From a virus (Duplodnaviria > Heunggongvirae > Uroviricota > Caudoviricetes): DNA of 64,000 bases. The DNA lies in IMG/VR virus record IMGVR_UViG_3300001525_000208, positions 15,019-79,018 of that record, one strand, 5' to 3'. The notes below the pieces were generated by a model that worked only from the letters and a program-made list of their open reading frames with translations, made no database searches and was not told the DNA's origin. Shown in pieces: positions 14,830 through 64,000 of this stretch; position 1 is the first letter of the stretch; every line of letters starts with the position of its first letter. Position numbers and translations under genes: made by a program.

Positions 14830-15945
14830 CATATACAAAATAATTCTTTACTGCTAAGGGGACTATTCTTGCAGATGGGTCTTTATGATACTCTTTATAA
14901 ATTTCATAGTCTCCTTTTAATTTAATGTGTTCACATTCAGGAGAATTATCAGTGTATACTGCGATGTAGTTATTTCAAGTTATTCGTCTGATTTCTCAGA
15001 AGCTTGGACTATATCTTTATTATTAATTCTTATAATTCTATGTTTTTTAAAGATTACATCATTTATTTTCTTTTTATTAAATGTGGCTATTACATTTTTA
15101 AATCCTAATAATTCTAACTCTTTATATAATATATTTTCTGCAATTAAATCTCCATTAGAATTATAAATTGTATAAGTCCATTTAGTTAAATTTTTTGACA
15201 TTAATTCGCTTTGTTGAGTTTTTCGCTTGTTGTTATCTTTCCAATATTCTTTAAGTTTATCAGAATGATCTTTATGACATCCGTTTTCCCAATCTTTTTT
15301 AGCACGAATACCTATTTTTTCTTTTGTTTCTTCTGAACAAAAACATTTCCCTTTAGAATCCCATCTTAAATTATATCCTTTATTTGGATTTAAGGAATCT
15401 AATTCTTTCATCCAATATAATTCTTTTTCTGCTAAAAGTTGTTCTAAATTAGAATCTTTAATATCAAAATTTTCAACTAAATAATATTCAAAATTATCTT
15501 CTCCATATTTTTTGACAGCATTTAATAAATGTGGATTTTCATTATAATTCCTATTATCTATTTTAATGTCTGTCATATGTTGATGTAATCTTTTATAACA
15601 ATTTTTTGATTTACCGACATAGATTTTTCCATTTATAGAATTTTTTATTACATAAATTCCTGGAAAATTGCTGTTTCTTTTAATATTTTCATAAGTTATA
15701 TAATTAATTATTTATATAGCAATAAATCAAAATTTTGACATATAATTATTAAAATTCATAATACCCAGCGTTTCCATTTAAATTTTAAATGTACTCTACT
15801 CACTTCCGTTAAATAACGTGTTTTCGATAGTCTCTGAACCTTCTTCTACATAGAAGCTTGGCTGCTGATTAGTATACGATTAATCGTCACGATTTGCGCT
15901 TCAACTTTCCAGCAATTAACCGGGTTACGACGCAAATATTATCTT
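14802..15945 (-). mobile_element. Group I intron in polB carrying a GIY-YIG homing endonuclease gene. The 3' end is uncertain (14802-14829).
   Basis: Conserved group I elements were found on the minus strand:
- P-like AATTGCTGGAAAG (plus 15905-15917)
- Q-like AATCAGCAG (15860-15870)
- R GGTTCAGAGACTA (15825-15840)
- S-like AAGAATAGTCCC (14859-14870), which completes P7 (GACTA/TAGTC).
P1 has exon GACGU pairing with IGS GCGUC, with U.G at the splice site. The TAA that appears to end the polB ORF lies inside the intron. Confidence 0.7.
14980..15711 (-). CDS. GIY-YIG homing endonuclease (intron-encoded). The first in-frame ATG is at 15576, but the GIY-YIG motif lies upstream of it.
   Basis: PGIYVIKNSINGKIYVGKS is encoded at about 15610-15663, in frame with the MTD... 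ORF. The frame is open back to a TAA at 15712-15714 and contains no ATG/GTG/TTG. Confidence 0.7.
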   Translation of the reverse strand: MINYITYENIKRNSNFPGIYVIKNSINGKIYVGKSKNCYKRLHQHMTDIKIDNRNYNENPHLLNAVKKYGEDNFEYYLVENFDIKDSNLEQLLAEKELYWMKELDSLNPNKGYNLRWDSKGKCFCSEETKEKIGIRAKKDWENGCHKDHSDKLKEYWKDNNKRKTQQSELMSKNLTKWTYTIYNSNGDLIAENILYKELELLGFKNVIATFNKKKINDVIFKKHRIIRINNKDIVQASEKSDE

Positions 15946-37164: not shown

Positions 37165-37993
37165 TGTATCTTTAGCCAAATTTGTTATCTTAAAGGCTCT
37201 TTATCCTTTAATTCTATACTTTTATTTATATGTATAGTTCAGACTATATCTTTCATTCATTTTATATTCTCACGAATTTTACTCTGAACAGTGCCCCGCT
37301 TTCGTGGATGATTTTATAGCCTCGTCTTTCTCGTTAGGCATCACATCTAGTCGTTTAGCTTTTTCCTCAATTTCTTGAGGGTTTAGCACAAGATTGTCCT
37401 TTTCAGGAGTTTCCCTGTTTAACGGAGTTTTATAATGACACTTATAACTTATATTTCATGCAAGATACTATATAAGGCTCTATCAATCTTTTAAATTTAG
37501 GATATTCTTTACTTGGAATATATACAAGATTATCGGACTTATTATTTAAAGTTATAAAAATATTAAATTTAACTTTAAACATTTCTTTTATTAATTCTAA
37601 CTCTTGTTTAGAAAAATTATTAGTACATAACATACATCCTCCATAAGGATTACATTTATACCCATCATCCATATACCAGATAGCTAGTCCAAGAGGTTCT
37701 ATTTTAAATAAGTCATCCTTATATACTGTTTTCACTGGACGATACCAATTATAAAACATAGCATTTAATGATATAGAGGATTTAGTATAAAAAGAATAAT
37801 TATAATATTCAGGATTTTTTCTTCCGTTTGGTGGAAGTTTGTTATTTTTTCTAATTTTTGCAATAGTAGATTCAGAATCACCTGAAATTCTGGATATTTC
37901 AGAATCTTTTAATCCTTGTTCATAAAATTCTAAAAATTGATAGATTTCAAAATAGTTTTTCTTAAATTTCTATAAATTAATTATTTTATCATT
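37165..37993 (-). mobile_element. Group I intron in the dnaB-like helicase gene with a LAGLIDADG ORF in its 5' region. Boundaries are approximate.
   Basis: Minus-strand elements:
- S AAGATATAGTCTGAAC (37237-37252)
- R-like ACGACTAGA (37346-37354)
- GTTCAGAG (37283-37290)
- P-like AATTGAGGAAAAAG (37358-37371)
- P9-like hairpin CTATAC...GTATAG
The helicase is broken exactly in motif H4. Exons 1 and 2 are in different frames, which excludes an intein. Confidence 0.6.
37442..37759 (-). CDS. LAGLIDADG homing endonuclease (intron-encoded). Its frame is continuous upstream through an HTH-like segment to the TAG that ends helicase exon 1.
   Basis: LGLAIWYMDDGY is a LAGLIDADG motif. The upstream in-frame extension (37760-37969) encodes ...LKDSEISRISGDSESTIAKIRKNN (HTH-like). 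Confidence 0.6.
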   Translation of the reverse strand: MFYNWYRPVKTVYKDDLFKIEPLGLAIWYMDDGYKCNPYGGCMLCTNNFSKQELELIKEMFKVKFNIFITLNNKSDNLVYIPSKEYPKFKRLIEPYIVSCMKYKL

Positions 37994-38740
37994 AATACTA
38001 AAGGCCGATTTTCCCTGTTTGAATCTCTCGATATTACCTTGTTCGCGATTAGCTTGTTGGATTACGACAGGACTTATCTTACATTTCTCTCTTAGTACTA
38101 CTAAGTATGCAGATAAGTTATCGATTTCTTTCTTTAAAGTATTCCCTTGCTGAGGTCTTATTAATCCTATATGATCTATAATTACATTATATATCAAATT
38201 AGGATTATAAGGAGTATAAATGAGTCGGTTTTCACTTTCGGAAAAAGTTCCCATTTCCTCAAGTCGTTTCTTTAAAATTGAATAAACTGTATTAGCATTT
38301 ACTTGTTTATCGTAAATTTCCAGTTTACTTTCAATTTTATCTATCCAAGGTTTACACTTTTTGATTAATTCGTAATATTCCTCAGATAATACATAATCTC
38401 GTTCTCTAGATAGTATCTTTTTATAAGATAGTTCAATTCCATAGGTTTCAAATAAATACATAGACAATAACTTTATAAACAACGAAGTTGCATTCATTTC
38501 TAGAGAGAAATAAATAATTTTAAAGTCATCATCGTCAATATGAGCTTGTAAAGGTTTAAAAACATACGAGTAAAGTGCAAAACTCGTCTTACCTGCACCC
38601 GAATTACTCAGGATAAGTGTGTAAGTTTCACGAGTTACACCATCTATTATGCTTTCTAACTTAGGAAGACCCATAGGTATACCTTTATTTAAACCTAATC
38701 TACCTCTTTCAATTTCATTAAAGACACTGTCTGAAATCAA
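37994..38740 (-). CDS. dnaB: DnaB-like replicative helicase, exon 1 (RecA-like ATPase core)
   Basis: Walker A LSNSGAGKTSF, Walker B/H2 IIDHIGLI, and H3 VVIQQANREQGN. It stops within H4 (KSAFSIN...) at the intron boundary. Confidence 0.7.
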
Positions 38741-44464: not shown

Positions 44465-45250
44465 TCATCGATTAATTCCATACATAATATTTCCATTGCT
44501 AGTTACAGTAGGAACTTTACCATCCCACTTTTCAATCCACATTTGTTGAATCAAAAGAGGAGTAAGAGCTTGTTGCTTAAGTTCATTAGCTTCACGTTCT
44601 GCTTTAGCTGTTACTACAAGTTTTTGTGCTTGTGCTTCTGCAACTTTAACTTCATTAGCTGCGCGTTGTGCATCTTGAATTGCTTTATTCTTAGCATTAA
44701 CTGCATCTACAATAGTTTTAGGATAAGCAAGTCCTGATGTCATTTGTTCAAGATGAAAATTCTCTTTCTCAAGTGCTGAAGCAAGTTGCTTTTCTACAGC
44801 TGTTTCAATTGAATCTCGTTTACTTACAATTTCATCGGTAGTAAATTTATTCAATTGAATACGAAACGCATCTCTCACATAGTTGAATAGTGTAGTTTTA
44901 ATAATTTCATCTACATCTTTACGATATTTTTTAAAGATTGTAGGAGATTTACCATCAACTACTTTAAGTGAAATTGTAGGATCAACTGTAAATTCTGAAC
45001 CATCTTTAGCGTTAACAGTAAAAGGTTCATAATCTACAGTTTGTACATAAGTAGGATACTCATATACTTGTTGTGTAAAAGGATTATAAAATACAGTTCC
45101 CGATACCATTGATACTTGATCTACACCTCGATCATCTCCAAAAAGATTTACAAGAATACCTTCAGAACCAGCATCAATACGTTCACACGAAGTAAGAGAA
45201 GCTATAGTAATTGTACCTATAGCAAAGCATTTAATTAAATTTTTCACCAT
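44465..45250 (-). CDS. Predicted lipoprotein (lipobox LTSC), possibly with an SPFH/band-7-like domain
   Basis: N-terminus MVKNLIKCFAIGTITIASLTSC. A coiled-coil-rich C-terminus. Confidence 0.35.
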   Translation of the reverse strand: MVKNLIKCFAIGTITIASLTSCERIDAGSEGILVNLFGDDRGVDQVSMVSGTVFYNPFTQQVYEYPTYVQTVDYEPFTVNAKDGSEFTVDPTISLKVVDGKSPTIFKKYRKDVDEIIKTTLFNYVRDAFRIQLNKFTTDEIVSKRDSIETAVEKQLASALEKENFHLEQMTSGLAYPKTIVDAVNAKNKAIQDAQRAANEVKVAEAQAQKLVVTAKAEREANELKQQALTPLLIQQMWIEKWDGKVPTVTSNGNIMYGINR

Positions 45251-49964: not shown

Positions 49965-50037
49965 AATGTGGGCCTGGGGAATATTGAAATCCCGATCTTC
50001 GGTTTATGAGACCGCTGCTTTAACCTCTAAGCTACAA
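49965..50037 (-). tRNA. tRNA-Met/Ile2 (anticodon CAU)
   Basis: Acceptor GGGCTTG/CAGGCCC, anticodon loop CTCATAA, T-loop TTCAATA. One mismatch in the anticodon stem. Confidence 0.7.
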
Positions 50038-53000
50038 GCCCTATGATTTATATTACAAGCATTTATAAGCTTGTTCTATAAATCTATCAATGTATTTATC
50101 ATTATAAAAACAATCTATATTATATCTAAATTGTACTTTTCTTCCAACTTTATATTTAGATTGAATATAATTAAATACTTTTTGACCTTTTCTCCAATTA
50201 TCAGGGAGAGTTTTTATATTTTTAAAAATATCTCCTCTAAATTCTTCAAATGTCATAAAATGTGTTGATTTTATTGTCTTTATAATCTCTTACTATCGTA
50301 GAAGATTTTCTTGGAAAATGTTTAATATAATTTTCATAAGATTGTGCAAAACTAAAATTGGTAATAAACGCACATAATAAAAATATATATCTAAACATTA
50401 TAAATCTTTATTTAAAATTATCTTAAATCTTTTTAAATTGAGCATAAGTATGATTTAAAATAACAGGTTTATTATTTTGAGGATTTAATTCCTTAGTTCC
50501 ATCAGGATTAAGAATTTGAATCTTACAAAAAGAACATCTTTTTTCAACAATAATACCGTGTTTTCCTAAATCATTCTTATGCGTATGAGTAATTACTACT
50601 TCATCTCCTTCTTTATATAGAGTACGTAGTTTCATATTCTGTTATTTGTTTTTTAATATTTTCAATTAAAACATCTAATTGTTTTTTTCTCTCTTCTTTA
50701 TCTTGAATACAAGAAAGTTTAAAACAAGGTCTACTATAATTTTTAAATTGAAATTTTATAGGAATATTTTCCTCAGAGCCATAATAATCTAAAATTACTT
50801 TAGCTATTATAGCTTCCATATTTTTCTTTTTAAGTTTCATTTAAAAAATAAAATTTTAAAATCAATTTTGCAATTCTTTATCTAAAGATGGAATATAACA
50901 CGGAACAGCTAATATATCTTTAATTTTTAGTTCTGTTTCATATTCATCAACATCTGTACTTAATAATTGATCACAATCATCATAAATTCTATATTCTTCA
51001 TAATGACAAGTATTATAAGCTGTAATTAATATATTATTATAATACAATAGAAAGTTTTGTTGCCAAGTATGTGAATCTAATGCAATACAATTAAAATCTA
51101 ATATAACAGCTTTAATAATAGAGTTATTATTAGATATATTAATTATATCATATTGTTTATAATCATTCATAATTTTTAAATTCTTCAATATTATTAATAA
51201 CTATAGGTTGCCCATCTAAGAATAGAAAATAATCTGCTAGGGTATCTACATAATAAGTAGGGCCTGAGGACATTGTGACAGAATCATCTATTATTTTTGT
51301 AATAAGTACTATTCTATTACCAACTTTATCTCTCAAATACCCAAAACAATCATGCTTCTTAGCTTCTTTAATAAACTCTGAAGTTTTACATACTTTCTTT
51401 GTGTATTTGATTCTAAGAGGAATTTTGAATTCAACACATTCTTTTATTCTTTCAGGATCAGTAGTTTGTTTATAATTATTGGTTGTATTATCCCAATATT
51501 CTACTTTTTTATTCTTAAGTAATGCATCAAAGCATTTAATAATAATATCTTGTTTAGTCATATTTATTCAATATAATCATCAGTAGTACCAATTAATTTA
51601 GCTGTTTTTTCATTGTAAGGGAGACAATAAGTATACCAACCATTAATAGTAGTATAAGGAGCTTCTTTGCAAGATTTATCTTTATAACTAAAGAAATCAA
51701 TAGTCCAAGTATCAAGTTTATTATCTCTTACAACAACCTTGTCAAAAGGTTTAAAATGGTATTTTTCTTTCTTTTTAAGACTAAAGTTGTCCCAGTTTCT
51801 TACTTCTTTTGAAGGGAAGAGAAGACATTCTCCATTTATGTTATATTGGCCATAACTATTAAATGTAAAAAATCCTATTTCTTCATCAACAAAAACAGTT
51901 AGATCTCCATTATCTAAAATTCTACTCAAATATACGTCACCACAGAGAGGGCTATAAAGTTTGAATCCTTCACGTAAGAAAGCTTGATAATATCCTTGAG
52001 TTGCATCTTTGAGTAAATCTGCTATATTATTCATATGTCACTGTTTTTAAGTTATATTCTATGTTATTGAATTCTCCTTCTGTAGTATCAGAGATTTCTT
52101 TACCATCACCATCTTTATAAAATCTTTCAAAAGCTTCTGTAGGACTTGTAGCATCTATTTCATATACTCTAGTCCTAGTAAGATGTTCTATTTGTGTTAT
52201 TTGATATGTTTTCATAAGGATTTCAATAAAAAACAAATCATAAAGTATATAAATACTAGAGTAAATACATACTAAATGATAGGTTACAATTATAAAACCA
52301 AACAAAAATGTCTATTATTCTACTAGTTTACCAAAAGGAGTATTATCAGCAAATTGAAATGAATCTAATGCTTCTTTAAAAGTATAAGCTAGATGTTCAT
52401 CAGGATAAGCATCTAGCATAAGTTCATCTTCAGCTACTGATATAATAGGTTGTTTAATACCTTGTTTAGTGAATGTAATCCAACTAAAAGGTTGATGTTT
52501 GAGCATTTCTTCCCAACATTCTTCTTTAGTTTCAAAAGAAACATATTTAGGTTCAGGTTTTACTCTGAAAGTAATATCTGCTTCCATAAAGGTTTGAATG
52601 TCTACAATTTTAAGTTCATCTAGGTCTATCCAAGCCCCTGTATCATAGACACCATTATCTTTATATTGAATAGTTTTACCTTCTGAATATGCTTTAAGAA
52701 TAGGAAGTATGTCTTTAATTTGATTTGATGTCATAATTTAAAAATAAATACGTTTATACTTTATATTACCACATTTTGTACATTGAAGGAGAAATCCTTT
52801 AGCACATTGCTCATGAGTTTTATCGTACAAAGGAACTTCATTTAATAAAGTCCAATGATGACGATGAAATAATAAATCGTAAATTCTAGTAAACATATCT
52901 AAACATAATTAAAATCTAATAAAATGAGGAAACCTTGTTAATGTCTTATTTTACATCTCATTGAGAAAACCTCTTTGTCTACATATTACTATGTAGTTCT

Positions 53001-55435: not shown

Positions 55436-55517
55436 TTGGAATAATAGGAATCGAACCTATATTATCTGGCCCAAAATCAGATGTAATAACCATTATACTA
55501 TATTCCAGTTTGTAGAA
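55436..55517 (-). tRNA. tRNA-Gln (anticodon UUG)
   Basis: Acceptor TGGAATA/TATTCCA (U1-A72, as in bacterial tRNA-Gln). Anticodon loop TTTTGGG with a 4-bp stem plus A.C. T-arm ATAGG-TTCGATT-CCTAT. Confidence 0.65.
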
Positions 55518-57720: not shown

Positions 57721-58645
57721 TTTGTTAATTATTATTGTTTGTTCTTTTTATCTTGAGTGTAACAAATAGTCATTAATAAACAACCATTTGTAAATGTTGA
57801 TAATGCTAATCCTACTACAAATGCAATAGTACAAGGGTCATTGTTTAAAAGACCTATACAAGTACAAATAAGTAGAACTAAAGTACAGCAACAAGAGAAA
57901 ATTAATGATTTCATTTTGTTTGGTTTTATATAACTGAGGTTTTAGATATTATTTTCATACCAATCTGCTACAGTGTCAAATTCTTCTTCTGTAAGGTCTG
58001 ATACTGTAGTATAGTAGTTACAAGCTGTTATGTATTTAGCTTGTGAGCAAGTGGACTCTATAATAGAATCCAATTTGTTAAGGCATTCTTGTTTTGTCAT
58101 TATCTTATACGATTTAATTTATACTATTGCGAGGTTTCACAGACACAGAGCCATTATCTATATGATAGTTTCTCTCTGTGTTTCGTCCAGTCTCATCAGT
58201 ATGAATTTTAACGTCTCCTGGATGACGATTTTTTACTTTTTAGCAAACAAGAAATGAACATTAATTTGATAGTTTGACCTTATACTAACTATTCAAGGTT
58301 TTGTTGATAAAATGGTTAATTCGTATTAAGTTGGGATAATTTTGGATTTGGTTGGTGTGGGTGATGGTTGTGTTGGGAGGGTGGTGATGAGCTGCTTCGT
58401 TCTTAACATATCACGAACGATACACCAATACACCTTTCCATCAATTAACCAATCTTCTCCACCACGAATACTCATCCATTTACCAGACTCAACATCTTTG
58501 TACAAACTGTCACCATACTTACGTACTTTGACAGTCTTAAGTCTTTCGTCAGGATGCATAATATGTATACATATTAAAATCTAAAAACTTAAGTTACTTC
58601 GAATGACTCGTTATAACCTAAATTTTTAGATTTTTTCAACATATA

Positions 58646-59131
58646 CTACTCTGCATCTATGGTAGGAATATTAGTATTTACGAGAGCATCACCATCAAAA
58701 TTGAGAGTTTTGATAGTCATCATGTCCGAAAACTTAATCTTCTTACCTCCGAAATACTTAACTGCTTCGTCAATTGAGGCAAACTCACGGAACTTTTCTG
58801 CACAAGAACCAGTAGTATGAACTCGGTTACCTGTAGGAGTCATGTCGTCATTATATACGGCACGAGACTTCCACATAATTGACGGATAGAATCGCTTAGC
58901 GCAATTCTTAGTACCTGTTGTTGCGTTGGATACATCAACAAGAATGAACTGAGCACTATTGGTTCCAATCTTCTGATTGTAAACCTTGTACTCTTCAGGC
59001 ATTACGAACTCATCACCTTTCTCAAACGAGTTAAGGTCTACATCACGAGTTGCGCCAGTAAATGCATTACCAGCTACTTCAATACCTTTTGTCTTAGAAA
59101 GACGATCGATTTCAACAGTCATTGCTGCCAT
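58646..59131 (-). CDS. Hypothetical protein inside the GC-rich segment
   Basis: 161-aa ORF. Local GC and amino-acid composition (A/G/T/V-rich) differ from the rest of the window. Confidence 0.4.
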   Translation of the reverse strand: MAAMTVEIDRLSKTKGIEVAGNAFTGATRDVDLNSFEKGDEFVMPEEYKVYNQKIGTNSAQFILVDVSNATTGTKNCAKRFYPSIMWKSRAVYNDDMTPTGNRVHTTGSCAEKFREFASIDEAVKYFGGKKIKFSDMMTIKTLNFDGDALVNTNIPTIDAE

Positions 59132-62264: not shown

Positions 62265-62687
62265 TTGGAATTATTGAAAAATTATATTATTATTGTAAAT
62301 ATAATAATTAAATACTTATTGATAATGAAAAATGAAATAATTAATGAATGGTTGAAGAGTTTTGGAACTCTTATTAATAAAGAAAAATCAGAAGGAGTTA
62401 CTCATTACGAATTTGACTTTGAAGGGTCACCTGTTCATATTTGGACAAGTGACGGAATGCTTAAATTAGAGTATAAATATAACAATCTTGAAGATGAGTT
62501 TTTAAAGTATTGTGAATCTTTAGATGATGATATTTTTGTAGAAGCTTGTGAACGTTTTAATGAATATAAACCTATTAGAGAATTTTCAAAGAATATAAAT
62601 TCTGAAGATATTAAATTTTTTAAGACTATAGTTGAAAAAATTGTCTGTGAAAAAATTAATTATTATAAAGAAATGATAGAAAGATAA
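62265..62687 (+). CDS. Hypothetical protein (standard code, TAA stop)
   Basis: 140-aa ORF downstream of the promoter repeat. Confidence 0.45.
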   Translation: MELLKNYIIIVNIIIKYLLIMKNEIINEWLKSFGTLINKEKSEGVTHYEFDFEGSPVHIWTSDGMLKLEYKYNNLEDEFLKYCESLDDDIFVEACERFNEYKPIREFSKNINSEDIKFFKTIVEKIVCEKINYYKEMIER

Positions 62688-62688
62688 A

Positions 62689-62713
62689 CAATAACTACTC
62701 TTTAAAGAGTAGT
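62689..62713 (+). terminator. Palindromic hairpin downstream of 62265..62687
   Basis: aactactcttt|aaagagtagtt is a perfect 11-bp palindrome followed by tctatt. Confidence 0.4.
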
Positions 62714-62719
62714 TTCTAT

Positions 62720-62793
62720 TGGAGTGTAGTATAAAGGTTTAATTACGATGGTCTCTAAAACCGAAGATCTGAGTTCGAGTCTCAGCGCTCCGA
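62720..62793 (+). tRNA. Amber suppressor tRNA (anticodon CUA), type I. Its acceptor and D-arm resemble the phage tRNA-Gln(UUG), so Gln identity is predicted.
   Basis: Manual fold:
- acceptor TGGAGTG/CGCTCCG (two G.U)
- U8
- D-arm GTAT-AAAGGTTTAA-TTAC with GG
- anticodon stem ATGGT/ACCGA with loop C-U-CUA-A-A (CUA at 62755-62757)
- 4-nt variable loop
- perfect T-arm CTGAG-TTCGAGT-CTCAG
- discriminator A. Confidence 0.75.
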
Positions 62794-63020
62794 CTATTTA
62801 ATTCAATACCTGATATGTTAGATAAATTTACTAATTACTTATTAAAGAAAATGTATAATCAATCTATTAATATTTGTAATAATATAGATAAAATTGTACG
62901 TATTTCAAATAAACAAAACACTCAAGATTTTATAAATTGGCAAGATGCTTTAAATAAGATAAGTGTAAAATAATTAATTTTAAACCAAGCGGGCCTATTC
63001 AGGTTCGCTTTTATTTTTAT

Positions 63021-64000
63021 ATGGCGAAAAAAACATACGAACACAGACCTATTGCGGTAGCACAAAGTGATGCTACTAATGTAAATTCTCGAATTAGATC
63101 TTTCTTAGAAACTCTACGTGCTAATGATAGAGCTAAAGCGGTTGAAGATATTAATGAAGATTCTTATTGGGGTTAGTTTAATCCTGAAGGAGGATGGGTT
63201 ATTTTGCGAGAAACATATACGCTCAAACCCACTTTATATTATAAAGATGCGTCTGATAAACTACACGCTGTACCTGAAAAATATATTAATTCTATTATAA
63301 AGAATCATCATGGACTTTATAGAGATTGGAATGAAGCAGAAACTGATTATTAGAATAATTTAATAAAATTTGGACTTACTCCTACTGTAGTAAGTGCAGC
63401 TCCTGTAGATAATAGAAGTGAAGCTATTAAAGAATATGAACGAAGAGGAAGACGTGCTGCTTATGAACACGATCAAGCAGAAGCTGACGCTTAGAAGGGT
63501 ATTAATATTGCATTGAATGCTATGTCACCTGGTTATTATATAGATAAGACAGGCATACTAGATAATATGTCTGAAGCAGATGCAGAAATTACTAAGGTTG
63601 GGGCTGATTTCGCCCCTGTTATTCTGACAGCTGGTGCTCAAGCTGGTGCTCAAGCTGGTGCTCGGATTGCAAACAGTTTAGTTAAAAGAGCTGCACGAAG
63701 AGCCACGCAAGCTTCAGCTAGAGAAGCAGAACAAGTTTTAGCTAGAGAAGCAGAACAAGTTTTAGCTAGAGAAGCAGAACAAGCAATGGTCAAAAGAGCG
63801 AAAGAATCATTGGCTAGACAAGCTTCAGCTAGAGAAGGAGAAACTATTGTTAATAGACCAGTTAATTTTGAAGACTTGGTGGCTGCTTATTCTAAAAAAG
63901 GTAAAAAAGGTAAAAGAGCACCTTAGCCGAATAGAACTACAGTTGAAACACCTGTTAAACCTGCAGAACCTGTTAAACCTGCAGAACCTGTTGTTGAAAC
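63021..64000 (+). CDS. Late protein, 3'-partial, readable only with TAG translated. It has four in-frame TAG codons and internal tandem repeats (GAQA x3, AREAEQVL x3, PVKPAEP x2+).
   Basis: ATG at 63021. In-frame TAGs at about 63174, 63351, 63492 and 63924, with no TAA or TGA to the window end. Nucleotide tandem repeats at 63630-63662, 63717-63784 and 63951-63990. Confidence 0.6.
63717..63784 (+). repeat. 24-nt tandem repeat (2.8 copies) encoding AREAEQVL
   Basis: gctagagaagcagaacaagtttta is repeated exactly twice, then a third copy is diverged at its end. Confidence 0.8.

Follow-up and report, generated by a model that had tools for sequence, protein, structure and literature searches.

The transfer RNA (tRNA) with anticodon CUA encoded on the plus strand at 62720-62794 of a 64,000-nucleotide stretch of viral DNA (IMG/VR record IMGVR_UViG_3300001525_000208, positions 15,019 to 79,018; the whole stretch is called here the window) is probably a phage amber suppressor that inserts glutamine at the TAG codons of recoded genes (genetic code 15), with a body of the Gln/Trp-type family and with the glutaminyl-tRNA synthetase (GlnRS) of the host as its likely charging enzyme. 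An earlier reading of this DNA (the initial annotation) had compared the suppressor with the tRNA-Gln(UUG) of the same phage and, from the 5′ architecture common to both, had taken it for a diverged tRNA-Gln paralogue, so that TAG would read as Gln. The assignment of glutamine is borne out here by codon substitution in 76 homologues, independently of the 5′-architecture argument. The 5′ likeness to the phage's own tRNA-Gln is real, yet not diagnostic of descent.

Meaning of the TAG codon

In-frame TAG codons are found in conserved genes of the window, 14, 4 and 4 of them in three open reading frames (ORFs), while its other genes follow the standard code. The meaning of TAG was studied in the ORF at 1-3075. 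A first count, made on a protein alignment with database homologues, was replaced by a count of real codons. The database homologues, 68 of which were found, are stored with TAG as Q: their genes fail standard-code translation, and 14 and 19 Q residues correspond to TAG codons. The recoded-phage proteins P0001-P0070 and those of loci L124-L130 are likewise stored already translated from TAG to Q. A protein-only inference of the meaning of TAG is circular for this reason, and it is the substitution counts on real codons that answer the question cleanly.

The real-codon count used the DNA of 76 distinct homologues of the 1-3075 gene. Every in-frame stop in these relatives is TAG (1171 of 1171), and 25 of the relatives have none. 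The sense codons opposite the 14 TAGs of the window specify Gln 218 times, Lys 88, Ser 84 and Glu 81 times, and in the relatives the four conserved TAG columns are 94, 78, 83 and 91% CAA or CAG. Conversely, the window residues opposite the TAGs of the relatives are Gln in 201 cases (6.5-fold over composition), Lys in 159 (1.6-fold), Glu in 94 (1.65-fold) and Trp in 3. Summed BLOSUM62 scores rank Gln (19.2) ahead of Glu (10.7) and Lys (7.1). At the 14 TAGs of the window, the 87%-identical relative L124 has CAA in five and TAG in six. Judging from this codon record, TAG is read as glutamine in this lineage.

Charging of the suppressor

tRNA genes were called across the window by ARAGORN and by the Rfam model RF00005 (gathering threshold 29 bits). 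ARAGORN found eight, all confirmed by the Rfam tRNA model. The minus strand has seven of them, in the stretch from 49.7 to 57.7 kb (Thr-UGU, Met-CAU, Arg-UCU, Gln-UUG, Asn-GUU, Leu-UAA and an odd tRNA whose anticodon loop has 8 nucleotides), and the CUA tRNA is the only one on the plus strand. Read from its sequence, the suppressor has U1/G72, G2-C71, G3-C70, G10-C25, U35, A37, A38 and A73.

In Escherichia coli, the determinants for GlnRS include U35 and the pairs 1-72, 3-70 and 10-25 (PMC9976931). The acceptor and core elements are present in the suppressor as a weak U1/G72, G2-C71, G3-C70 and G10-C25. The initial annotation had pointed to G10, U35, A37 and G73 as identity elements; the first three are in place and G73 is missing, position 73 being A, as it is also in the tRNA-Gln of the window, of crAss001, of cr126_1 and of IAS virus. 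From the E. coli anticodon-loop and discriminator set (U35, G36, A37, U38, G73), U35 and A37 match, and A36, A38 and A73 differ. C35 and G73, the main determinants of the bacterial tryptophanyl-tRNA synthetase (TrpRS), are absent from the suppressor. Among the ORFs of at least 300 amino acids in the window, none matched a synthetase or release-factor family, and none of the three recoded proteins, that of 399 amino acids included, had a match in PHROGs. With no synthetase match in the window, the host enzyme is the default for charging, and the suppressor would most likely be charged by the host GlnRS. Since an amber tRNA-Trp has been found charged with Gln (PMC9976931), the amino acid outcome would be the same whether the suppressor descends from tRNA-Gln or from tRNA-Trp.

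Several points weigh against this reading. A73 and A38 depart from the E. coli GlnRS set (G73, U38), and A36 replaces G36, a change that is unavoidable in a CUA anticodon. The window is part of a genome whose relatives lie on contigs of about 60-200 kb, and a phage synthetase encoded elsewhere is possible. Many Firmicutes lack GlnRS; in a host of this kind a C34 suppressor would need the glutamyl-tRNA synthetase and an amidotransferase, which is expected to be a poor route. Finally, one TAG column, number 112, is 86% Lys in the relatives. Lysine is also the second commonest residue opposite TAG, and U35 and A73 are determinants of the lysyl-tRNA synthetase as well, through which TAG could be read as Lys; amber suppressors can be lysylated (PMC1483225). 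We nevertheless regard it as very improbable that TAG is read as Lys, Glu or Trp, or that it is not decoded by this tRNA. Gln leads both tallies, fills 78-94% of the conserved columns as CAA or CAG and is enriched 6.5-fold as against 1.6-fold for Lys and Glu, with Trp being essentially absent; TAG and CAA alternate between genes that are 87% identical; and for two crAss-like gut phages the reading of TAG as Gln has been demonstrated by proteomics (PMC9523058).

Likeness of the 5′ part to tRNA-Gln(UUG)

The tRNA-Gln(UUG) gene lies on the minus strand, and the span 55436-55517 given to it by the initial annotation takes in 10 nucleotides of its 5′ flank. The 5′ strings quoted for both tRNAs proved exact: UGGAAUA UA GUAU AAUGGUUA UUAC A in tRNA-Gln and UGGAGUG UA GUAU AAAGGUUUAA UUAC G in the suppressor. 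The common U1, the GUAU D-stem (GTAT in the DNA) and the UUAC closing were confirmed in both, and the whole set of common elements comprises U1-G2-G3-A4, U8-A9 and the GUAU/UUAC D-stem, in which U13 and U22 are mismatched; the D-loops are similar. The tRNA-Gln has the anticodon loop UUUUGGG (G37, G38) with an A31/C39 mismatch, the loop of crAss-type tRNA-Gln being UUUUGGC. Its blastn matches are confined to genes for tRNA-Gln in crAss001-like Bacteroides phages, with 87.5% identity over positions 7-62, and an identical tRNA-Gln is present in L127, the sole relative locus reaching far enough. The suppressor is identical in the four close relatives L127-L130 (88% protein identity), which makes these uninformative for its ancestry.

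For comparison, a fixed-position map was built from the ARAGORN bracket output (positions 1-13, 22-33, 37-43 and 49-73, excluding anticodon, D-loop and variable loop), and the suppressor was scored against a set of 510 distinct sense tRNAs. This set was drawn from about 130 phage loci and from the genomes of three crAss-like phages, and a few reference tRNAs were added, from T4-like and other phages and, in two cases, from E. coli. At positions 1-13 and 22-26 the suppressor and the tRNA-Gln are identical in 15 of 18. The median score over the 510 sense tRNAs is about 7/18 and just two reach 15/18, so that the 5′ likeness is a genuine outlier above background. The second of these two is the tRNA-Asn(GUU) of IAS virus (UGGCAUA UA GUAU AAGGGUUUA UUAC G). 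Near-identical D-arms are found in the tRNA-Trp of Aeromonas phage Ah1 (GUAU AACGGUA UUAU G) and in the tRNA-Gly of crAss001, and the tRNA-Gln genes of crAss001 and cr126_1 have a close version of the same arm. Its occurrence in Asn, Trp and Gly tRNAs therefore marks this D-arm as a common type of AT-rich phage tRNAs and not as a mark of glutamine. A position model that sets Gln against Trp (leave-one-out accuracy 0.75 for the region) gives the suppressor's D-arm a log-odds of just +0.3 for Gln over Trp.

The likeness ends at position 26, beyond which 5 of 14 positions agree in the anticodon arm and 14 of 25 in the T arm, 3′ acceptor strand and discriminator. Overall identity of the suppressor to the tRNA-Gln is 63%, and to the tRNA-Met(CAU) of the window 65%. 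A blastn search with the 5′ half of the suppressor alone gave AT-rich chance matches and none on an annotated tRNA. As far as these alignments go, the 5′ likeness is best read as a D-arm type of AT-rich gut phages combined with a Gln-type first nucleotide.

The odd minus-strand tRNA of the window (Rfam 57.4 bits) shows an apparent 8-nucleotide anticodon loop, AUUUAUAA, and ARAGORN was undecided between UAU (Ile) and UUA, the anticodon of an ochre suppressor. The odd tRNA and the tRNA-Gln(UUG) have identical T arms and agree at positions 66-68, and the odd tRNA is closer to the tRNA-Gln (32/43, counted by hand) than the CUA suppressor is. In the close relative L127 no such tRNA was detected.

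Anticodon arm and 3′ half of the suppressor

With its sequence GGU-CUCUAAA-ACC, the anticodon arm of the suppressor differs from the canonical tRNA-Trp arm only in having U in place of C35. It agrees with several tRNA-Trp genes in 12 of 14 positions each, GGU-CUC.AAA-ACC being identical; over 15 phage tRNA-Trp genes its identity averages 0.77, far above the value for any other isotype; and in the Gln-versus-Trp model it yields a log-odds of −9.1 toward Trp, the remainder of the molecule giving −3.1. When the whole suppressor was searched by blastn against 50,697 annotated phage records, seven of the eight matches fell on annotated tRNA-Trp genes and the eighth in a record without annotation. 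The tRNA-Trp of Cronobacter phage S13 agrees with the suppressor in 43 of 57 positions, 21 of 25 in the 3′ part, as compared with 34 of 57 for the tRNA-Gln of the window. Grouping with Trp, Lys or Glu tRNAs, which the initial annotation had counted as evidence against a tRNA-Gln paralogue, is hence seen in part for Trp; five-class scores are −44.0 for Gln, −40.9 for Trp and −50 to −54 for Lys, Glu and Asn. Taken whole, the body is not closer to tRNA-Gln than to other isotypes. A 20-class position model, which ranked Trp, Phe, Ile, Ala and Gln in this order, was not relied on, given its leave-one-out accuracy of 0.71 and its mis-ranking of true tRNA-Gln.

Outside the anticodon arm the S13 tRNA-Trp scores 31/43, gut-phage tRNA-Trp genes 18-24/43 and a tRNA-Pro 33/43; the tRNA-Trp genes of gut crAss-like phages have identities of 0.42-0.56 to the suppressor there. 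G73 is present in 21 of the 22 tRNA-Trp genes compared, and the suppressor has A73. The acceptor end of bacterial tRNA-Trp (a purine at position 1 with U72, and G73) is not found either, its place being taken by U1/G72 and A73. The same type of anticodon arm occurs at 12 of 14 positions in Ser, Phe and Arg tRNAs and in the tRNA-Met of the window. A pattern scan that required the arm (GGTCTCTAAAACC, then GTTCGA) gave at least 120 loci in viral contigs, and among the matches listed the arm sits on more than 100 distinct suppressor bodies. The arm is possibly convergent, because other isotypes and so many suppressor bodies have it.

The tRNA-Met(CAU) on the minus strand matches the suppressor at 62748-62767 (plus strand) in 18 of 20 nucleotides, over the anticodon arm and the variable loop, and the sole differences between GGTCTCATAAACCGAAGATC in tRNA-Met and GGTCTCTAAAACCGAAGATC in the suppressor are two anticodon bases. 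tRNA-Met(CAU) was considered as a rival ancestor and ruled out, the arm being present on more than 100 bodies and in other isotypes. The match is judged, from the sequences compared, to be a convergence of arm type; it may also have come from gene conversion inside the phage.

A scan of bacterial genomes with the T arm and 3′ acceptor strand of the suppressor found two loci. The first, a tRNA-Pro(UGG) of a Kerfeldbacteria genome, has 24 of 25 positions in common with the 3′ part of the suppressor. The second, on a contig of a metagenome-assembled genome of Clostridia, is a CUA suppressor (L217) to which its co-resident tRNA-Trp and tRNA-Gln both score 26/43. As a tRNA-Pro fits even better than tRNA-Trp, matches of the 3′ half are not isotype-specific. 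The modules of the suppressor thus disagree, Gln or Asn being indicated by the D-arm, Trp by the anticodon arm, and Pro by the T arm with the acceptor; since each points to a different isotype, they are unfit for assigning the amino acid or the ancestry of the suppressor. We conclude that its body is of Gln/Trp type, and its ancestor may have been a tRNA-Gln or a tRNA-Trp.

A family of phage CUA suppressors

A ranking of 617 tRNAs by their matches at the 43 positions outside the anticodon arm placed other CUA suppressors nearest to that of the window, namely those of L025 and L214 (35/43 each), L027 (34/43), L215 (33/43) and L066 (32/43), followed by the S13 tRNA-Trp (31/43). The tRNA-Gln of the window came ninth (29/43), with six suppressors and a tRNA-Trp ahead of it. 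The L217 suppressor of the bacterial-genome scan also scores 35/43. The family defined in this way has eight members, namely the suppressors of the window, L025, L027, L066, L214, L215, L217 and L062, the last with just 28/43. All eight have a UUCGAGU T-loop on a CU(G/C)AG or CCGAG stem, and five have an acceptor stem of UGGGGUG/CGCCCC type. Every member has as its first pair either U-A or a wobble or mismatch (U/G, U/C, U/G, U/G, U-A, U-A, C/U, U/U), and a 1-72 pair that is weak or mismatched in all members seen is a possible clue to why GlnRS gets recruited.

The 3′ strand of the D-stem reads GUAC, AUAC or GCAC in the related suppressors and UUAC in that of the window. With these family D-stems, UUAC is best taken as derived in this lineage and not inherited. 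The closer suppressors in unrelated contigs and the derived UUAC therefore speak against a recent duplication of tRNA-Gln and for an older suppressor family, and the comparison favours the suppressor being a member of a widespread family of phage CUA suppressors that spans unrelated contigs. The loci retrieved with specific DNA patterns (L025 only; seven loci) included none in contigs of the phage's own family. A search for related loci with the ORF 58646-59131 found nothing, and the 699-amino-acid protein encoded downstream of the suppressor had no match in a protein search.

Phage CUA suppressors with the same arm would have several independent origins, since in the viral contigs L010 and L037 the CUA suppressor equals the co-resident tRNA-Ser(UGA) at 81% of the positions outside the anticodon arm; some of these suppressors may insert Ser. 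A second CUA suppressor in L058 (8759-8847) and L082 (972-1060) has the D-arm of the window's tRNA-Gln (UA GUAU AAUGGUUA UUAC) and a long variable arm, and may insert another amino acid. In the IAS virus genome (L136, NC_049978.1), RefSeq places 18 tRNA genes at 2463-4861 on the strand opposite to that called by ARAGORN.

Origin of the suppressor

Descent from the phage's own tRNA-Gln(UUG) would require a duplication inside the genome, the changes U34C and G36A, and later remodelling of the anticodon and T arms. This origin can call on the 5′ match, which is the best among the seven other tRNAs of the window and the joint best of 510, on the similar D-loops, on U1 and A73 in both tRNAs, on the same D-arm in the tRNA-Gln of crAss001 and cr126_1, and on a crAss-like tRNA-Gln that turned suppressor by TTG to TTA (PMC7886860). 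In addition, the tRNA-Gln is the co-resident tRNA nearest to the CUA suppressor in 7 of the 20 suppressors that have one. We consider it unlikely all the same. The likeness falls to background past position 26 (5/14 and 14/25), the tRNA-Asn of IAS virus equals the 5′ match, and the D-arm scarcely tells Gln from Trp (+0.3). Suppressors in unrelated contigs (32-35/43) are closer than the tRNA-Gln of the same phage (29/43), UUAC is derived, and the odd tRNA of the window, with its identical T arm (32/43, by hand count), is nearer to tRNA-Gln than the suppressor is.

The family could instead have come from a tRNA-Trp(CCA) by the single change C35U, which would move charging to GlnRS, just as it does in the amber suppressor of E. 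coli tRNA-Trp, with U1, the weak 1-72 pair and A73 acquired later and reinforcing the Gln identity. The anticodon arm, Trp-like save for position 35 (mean identity 0.77, log-odds −9.1), seven of eight blastn matches and the S13 tRNA-Trp (43/57; 3′ half 21/25) argue for it, as does the L215 suppressor, whose end CGCCCCU-G-CCA is the same as that of E. coli tRNA-Trp. The arm, however, may be convergent, as it is also found on Ser, Phe, Arg and Met tRNAs (12/14) and on the more than 100 suppressor bodies; the tRNA-Trp genes of gut crAss-like phages are distant outside it (0.42-0.56); G73, present in 21 of 22 tRNA-Trp genes, is A73 here; a tRNA-Pro fits the 3′ half better (24/25); and the L217 suppressor is equidistant from its co-resident tRNA-Trp and tRNA-Gln (26/43 each). 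Descent from tRNA-Trp is accordingly a possibility that we hold with some doubt. The same reserve applies to a wider proposal, which we put forward tentatively: that the family might be the natural equivalent of the amber suppressor derived from E. coli tRNA-Trp, tuned in its acceptor (U1, an unpaired or wobble 1-72 pair, A73) for GlnRS and against TrpRS, and spread among unrelated gut and rumen phages. If true, a Trp-derived and acceptor-tuned family would give a mechanism for the regular reassignment of TAG to Gln in phages.

Gene context of the suppressor

Under the reading preferred here, that of a glutamine-inserting suppressor of Gln/Trp-type body, the genes around the tRNA fall into a simple layout (Table 1). 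A short unit in standard code, made of a small ORF, a hairpin, the suppressor tRNA and a terminator-like hairpin, stands directly upstream of recoded plus-strand genes. The layout suggests a transcription unit, and a timing of its expression, by which the suppressor would be made available ahead of the recoded genes; it matches what has been described for recoded gut phages (bioRxiv 10.1101/2021.08.26.457843). The small ORF may be co-transcribed with the suppressor tRNA. Two terminator-like sites were found in the region, 0.1 being expected from shuffled sequences.

Table 1. Positions of the tRNA genes, coding regions and other elements discussed, numbered along the window.
Feature	Position	Strand	Remarks
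tRNA-Gln(UUG)	55435/55436-55507	−	ARAGORN; Rfam 62.4 bits; no encoded CCA; A73
Putative CUA amber suppressor tRNA	62720-62794	+	ARAGORN; Rfam 50.1 bits; no encoded CCA
Odd tRNA, 8-nucleotide anticodon loop	56990-57062	−	
tRNA-Met(CAU)	49968-50041	−	
Recoded ORF	1-3075	+	C-terminal 1024 codons of a protein of ~1577 amino acids; 14 in-frame TAGs
Start of recoded gene	63021-64000	+	699 amino acids in relative L129; 4 in-frame TAGs inside the window
Gene of 399 amino acids	60946-62145	−	transcribed away from the suppressor; 4 in-frame TAGs
Replication and nucleotide-metabolism block	3126-60451	−	57 kb; standard code
Small TAG-free ORF (MKNEIINEWLK...)	62322-62687	+	upstream of the suppressor; homologue at the same place in L127-L130
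Nine-pair hairpin AACTACTCTTTAAAGAGTAGTT	62693-62714		directly 5′ of the suppressor, just past the small-ORF stop (62687)
Terminator-like hairpin and T-run	62987-63010	+	between the suppressor and the ATG at 63021
DnaB_C helicase-domain ORF	37970-38740	−	ends in TAG; region with extension 37442-38740
SPFH/Band 7 gene	44465-45250	−	
RAGATH-1 hammerhead ribozyme	58137-58228	−	65.2 bits (gathering threshold 56.3)

The homologues of the 1-3075 protein have a weak Pfam match to PDDEXK_1, and for the 399-amino-acid protein just two homologues were found, P0069 (88%) and P0070 (81%). The minus-strand block encodes NrdD, DNA polymerase, a Dda-like helicase, ligase, primase, a sigma factor, ThyX and others. 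No TAG occurs inside its genes, and TAG is the rarest stop of its 77 ORFs (TAA 43, TGA 28, TAG 6); of the ORFs ending in TAG, all but one of the six have a second stop within 18 codons.

The DnaB_C ORF of the block ends in TAG, beyond which the frame continues for 175 codons that look, by eye, like a LAGLIDADG homing endonuclease. The whole may represent either an intervening element or the product of TAG read-through in the otherwise standard-code block. At the nucleotide level the SPFH/Band 7 gene is 72-76% identical to IAS virus and to Prevotella Lak megaphages; it is the sole protein-coding stretch in 40000-64000 with DNA-level likeness to annotated phages, and is a hint that the host may belong to the Bacteroidales. 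A RAGATH-1 hammerhead ribozyme lies between the tRNA cluster and the suppressor, and in its region a stretch of 63 nucleotides is 98% identical to the uncultured crAss-like phage cr131_1.

Comparison with known suppressor systems

The E. coli supE suppressor is a tRNA-Gln2 in which CUG became CUA, the whole tRNA-Gln body being kept together with G73 and U38. The suppressor of the window shares with it CUA, U1, G2-C71, G3-C70, G10, A37 and, as predicted here, the insertion of Gln, but differs in that its anticodon arm, T arm and discriminator are unlike the tRNA-Gln genes compared. The amber suppressor derived from E. coli tRNA-Trp by the change of CCA to CUA goes by the names of Su7 and supU. 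The window suppressor and this tRNA-Trp derivative have in common the Trp-type arm with U35, the GGxG acceptor stem and the amino acid expected, Gln, with which the E. coli tRNA is charged (PMC9976931). A1-U72 and G73 of the E. coli tRNA are replaced in the window by U1/G72 and A73. In alpha-group crAss-like phages, a point mutation from TTG to TTA in an otherwise identical tRNA-Gln gene gave a TAA suppressor (PMC7886860). That case also shows a phage tRNA-Gln able to become a stop-codon suppressor, although in the window the likeness is limited to the 5′ third and the codon is TAG, not TAA.

Reading of TAG as Gln over part of the genome, by means of a phage CUA suppressor, has already been described in crAss-like phages (PMC7886860), in further clades of gut phages (bioRxiv 10.1101/2021.08.26.457843) and by proteomics (PMC9523058); a TAG suppressor that seems to have come from bacteria has been reported as well (PMC7886860). 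The relatives of the window lie on contigs some of which are recoded (roughly 50) and others in standard code (25), and a link to the zeta group of crAss-like phages (145-192 kb, mixed codes; PMC7886860) is only a lead. Like the code-15 gut phages (crAss-like, Lak and others), the window is AT-rich, keeps its replication genes in standard code and limits TAG to other blocks, where homologues have Gln for it; its CUA tRNA adjoins the recoded genes, and no synthetase was found. It differs from them in that its lineage has no representative among annotated phage genomes: the best matches of the large recoded protein are unannotated metagenomic records with 25-41% identity, and the DNA polymerase has at most 36% identity to any record. 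The window is thus one more lineage of the established recoding of TAG to Gln in gut phages.

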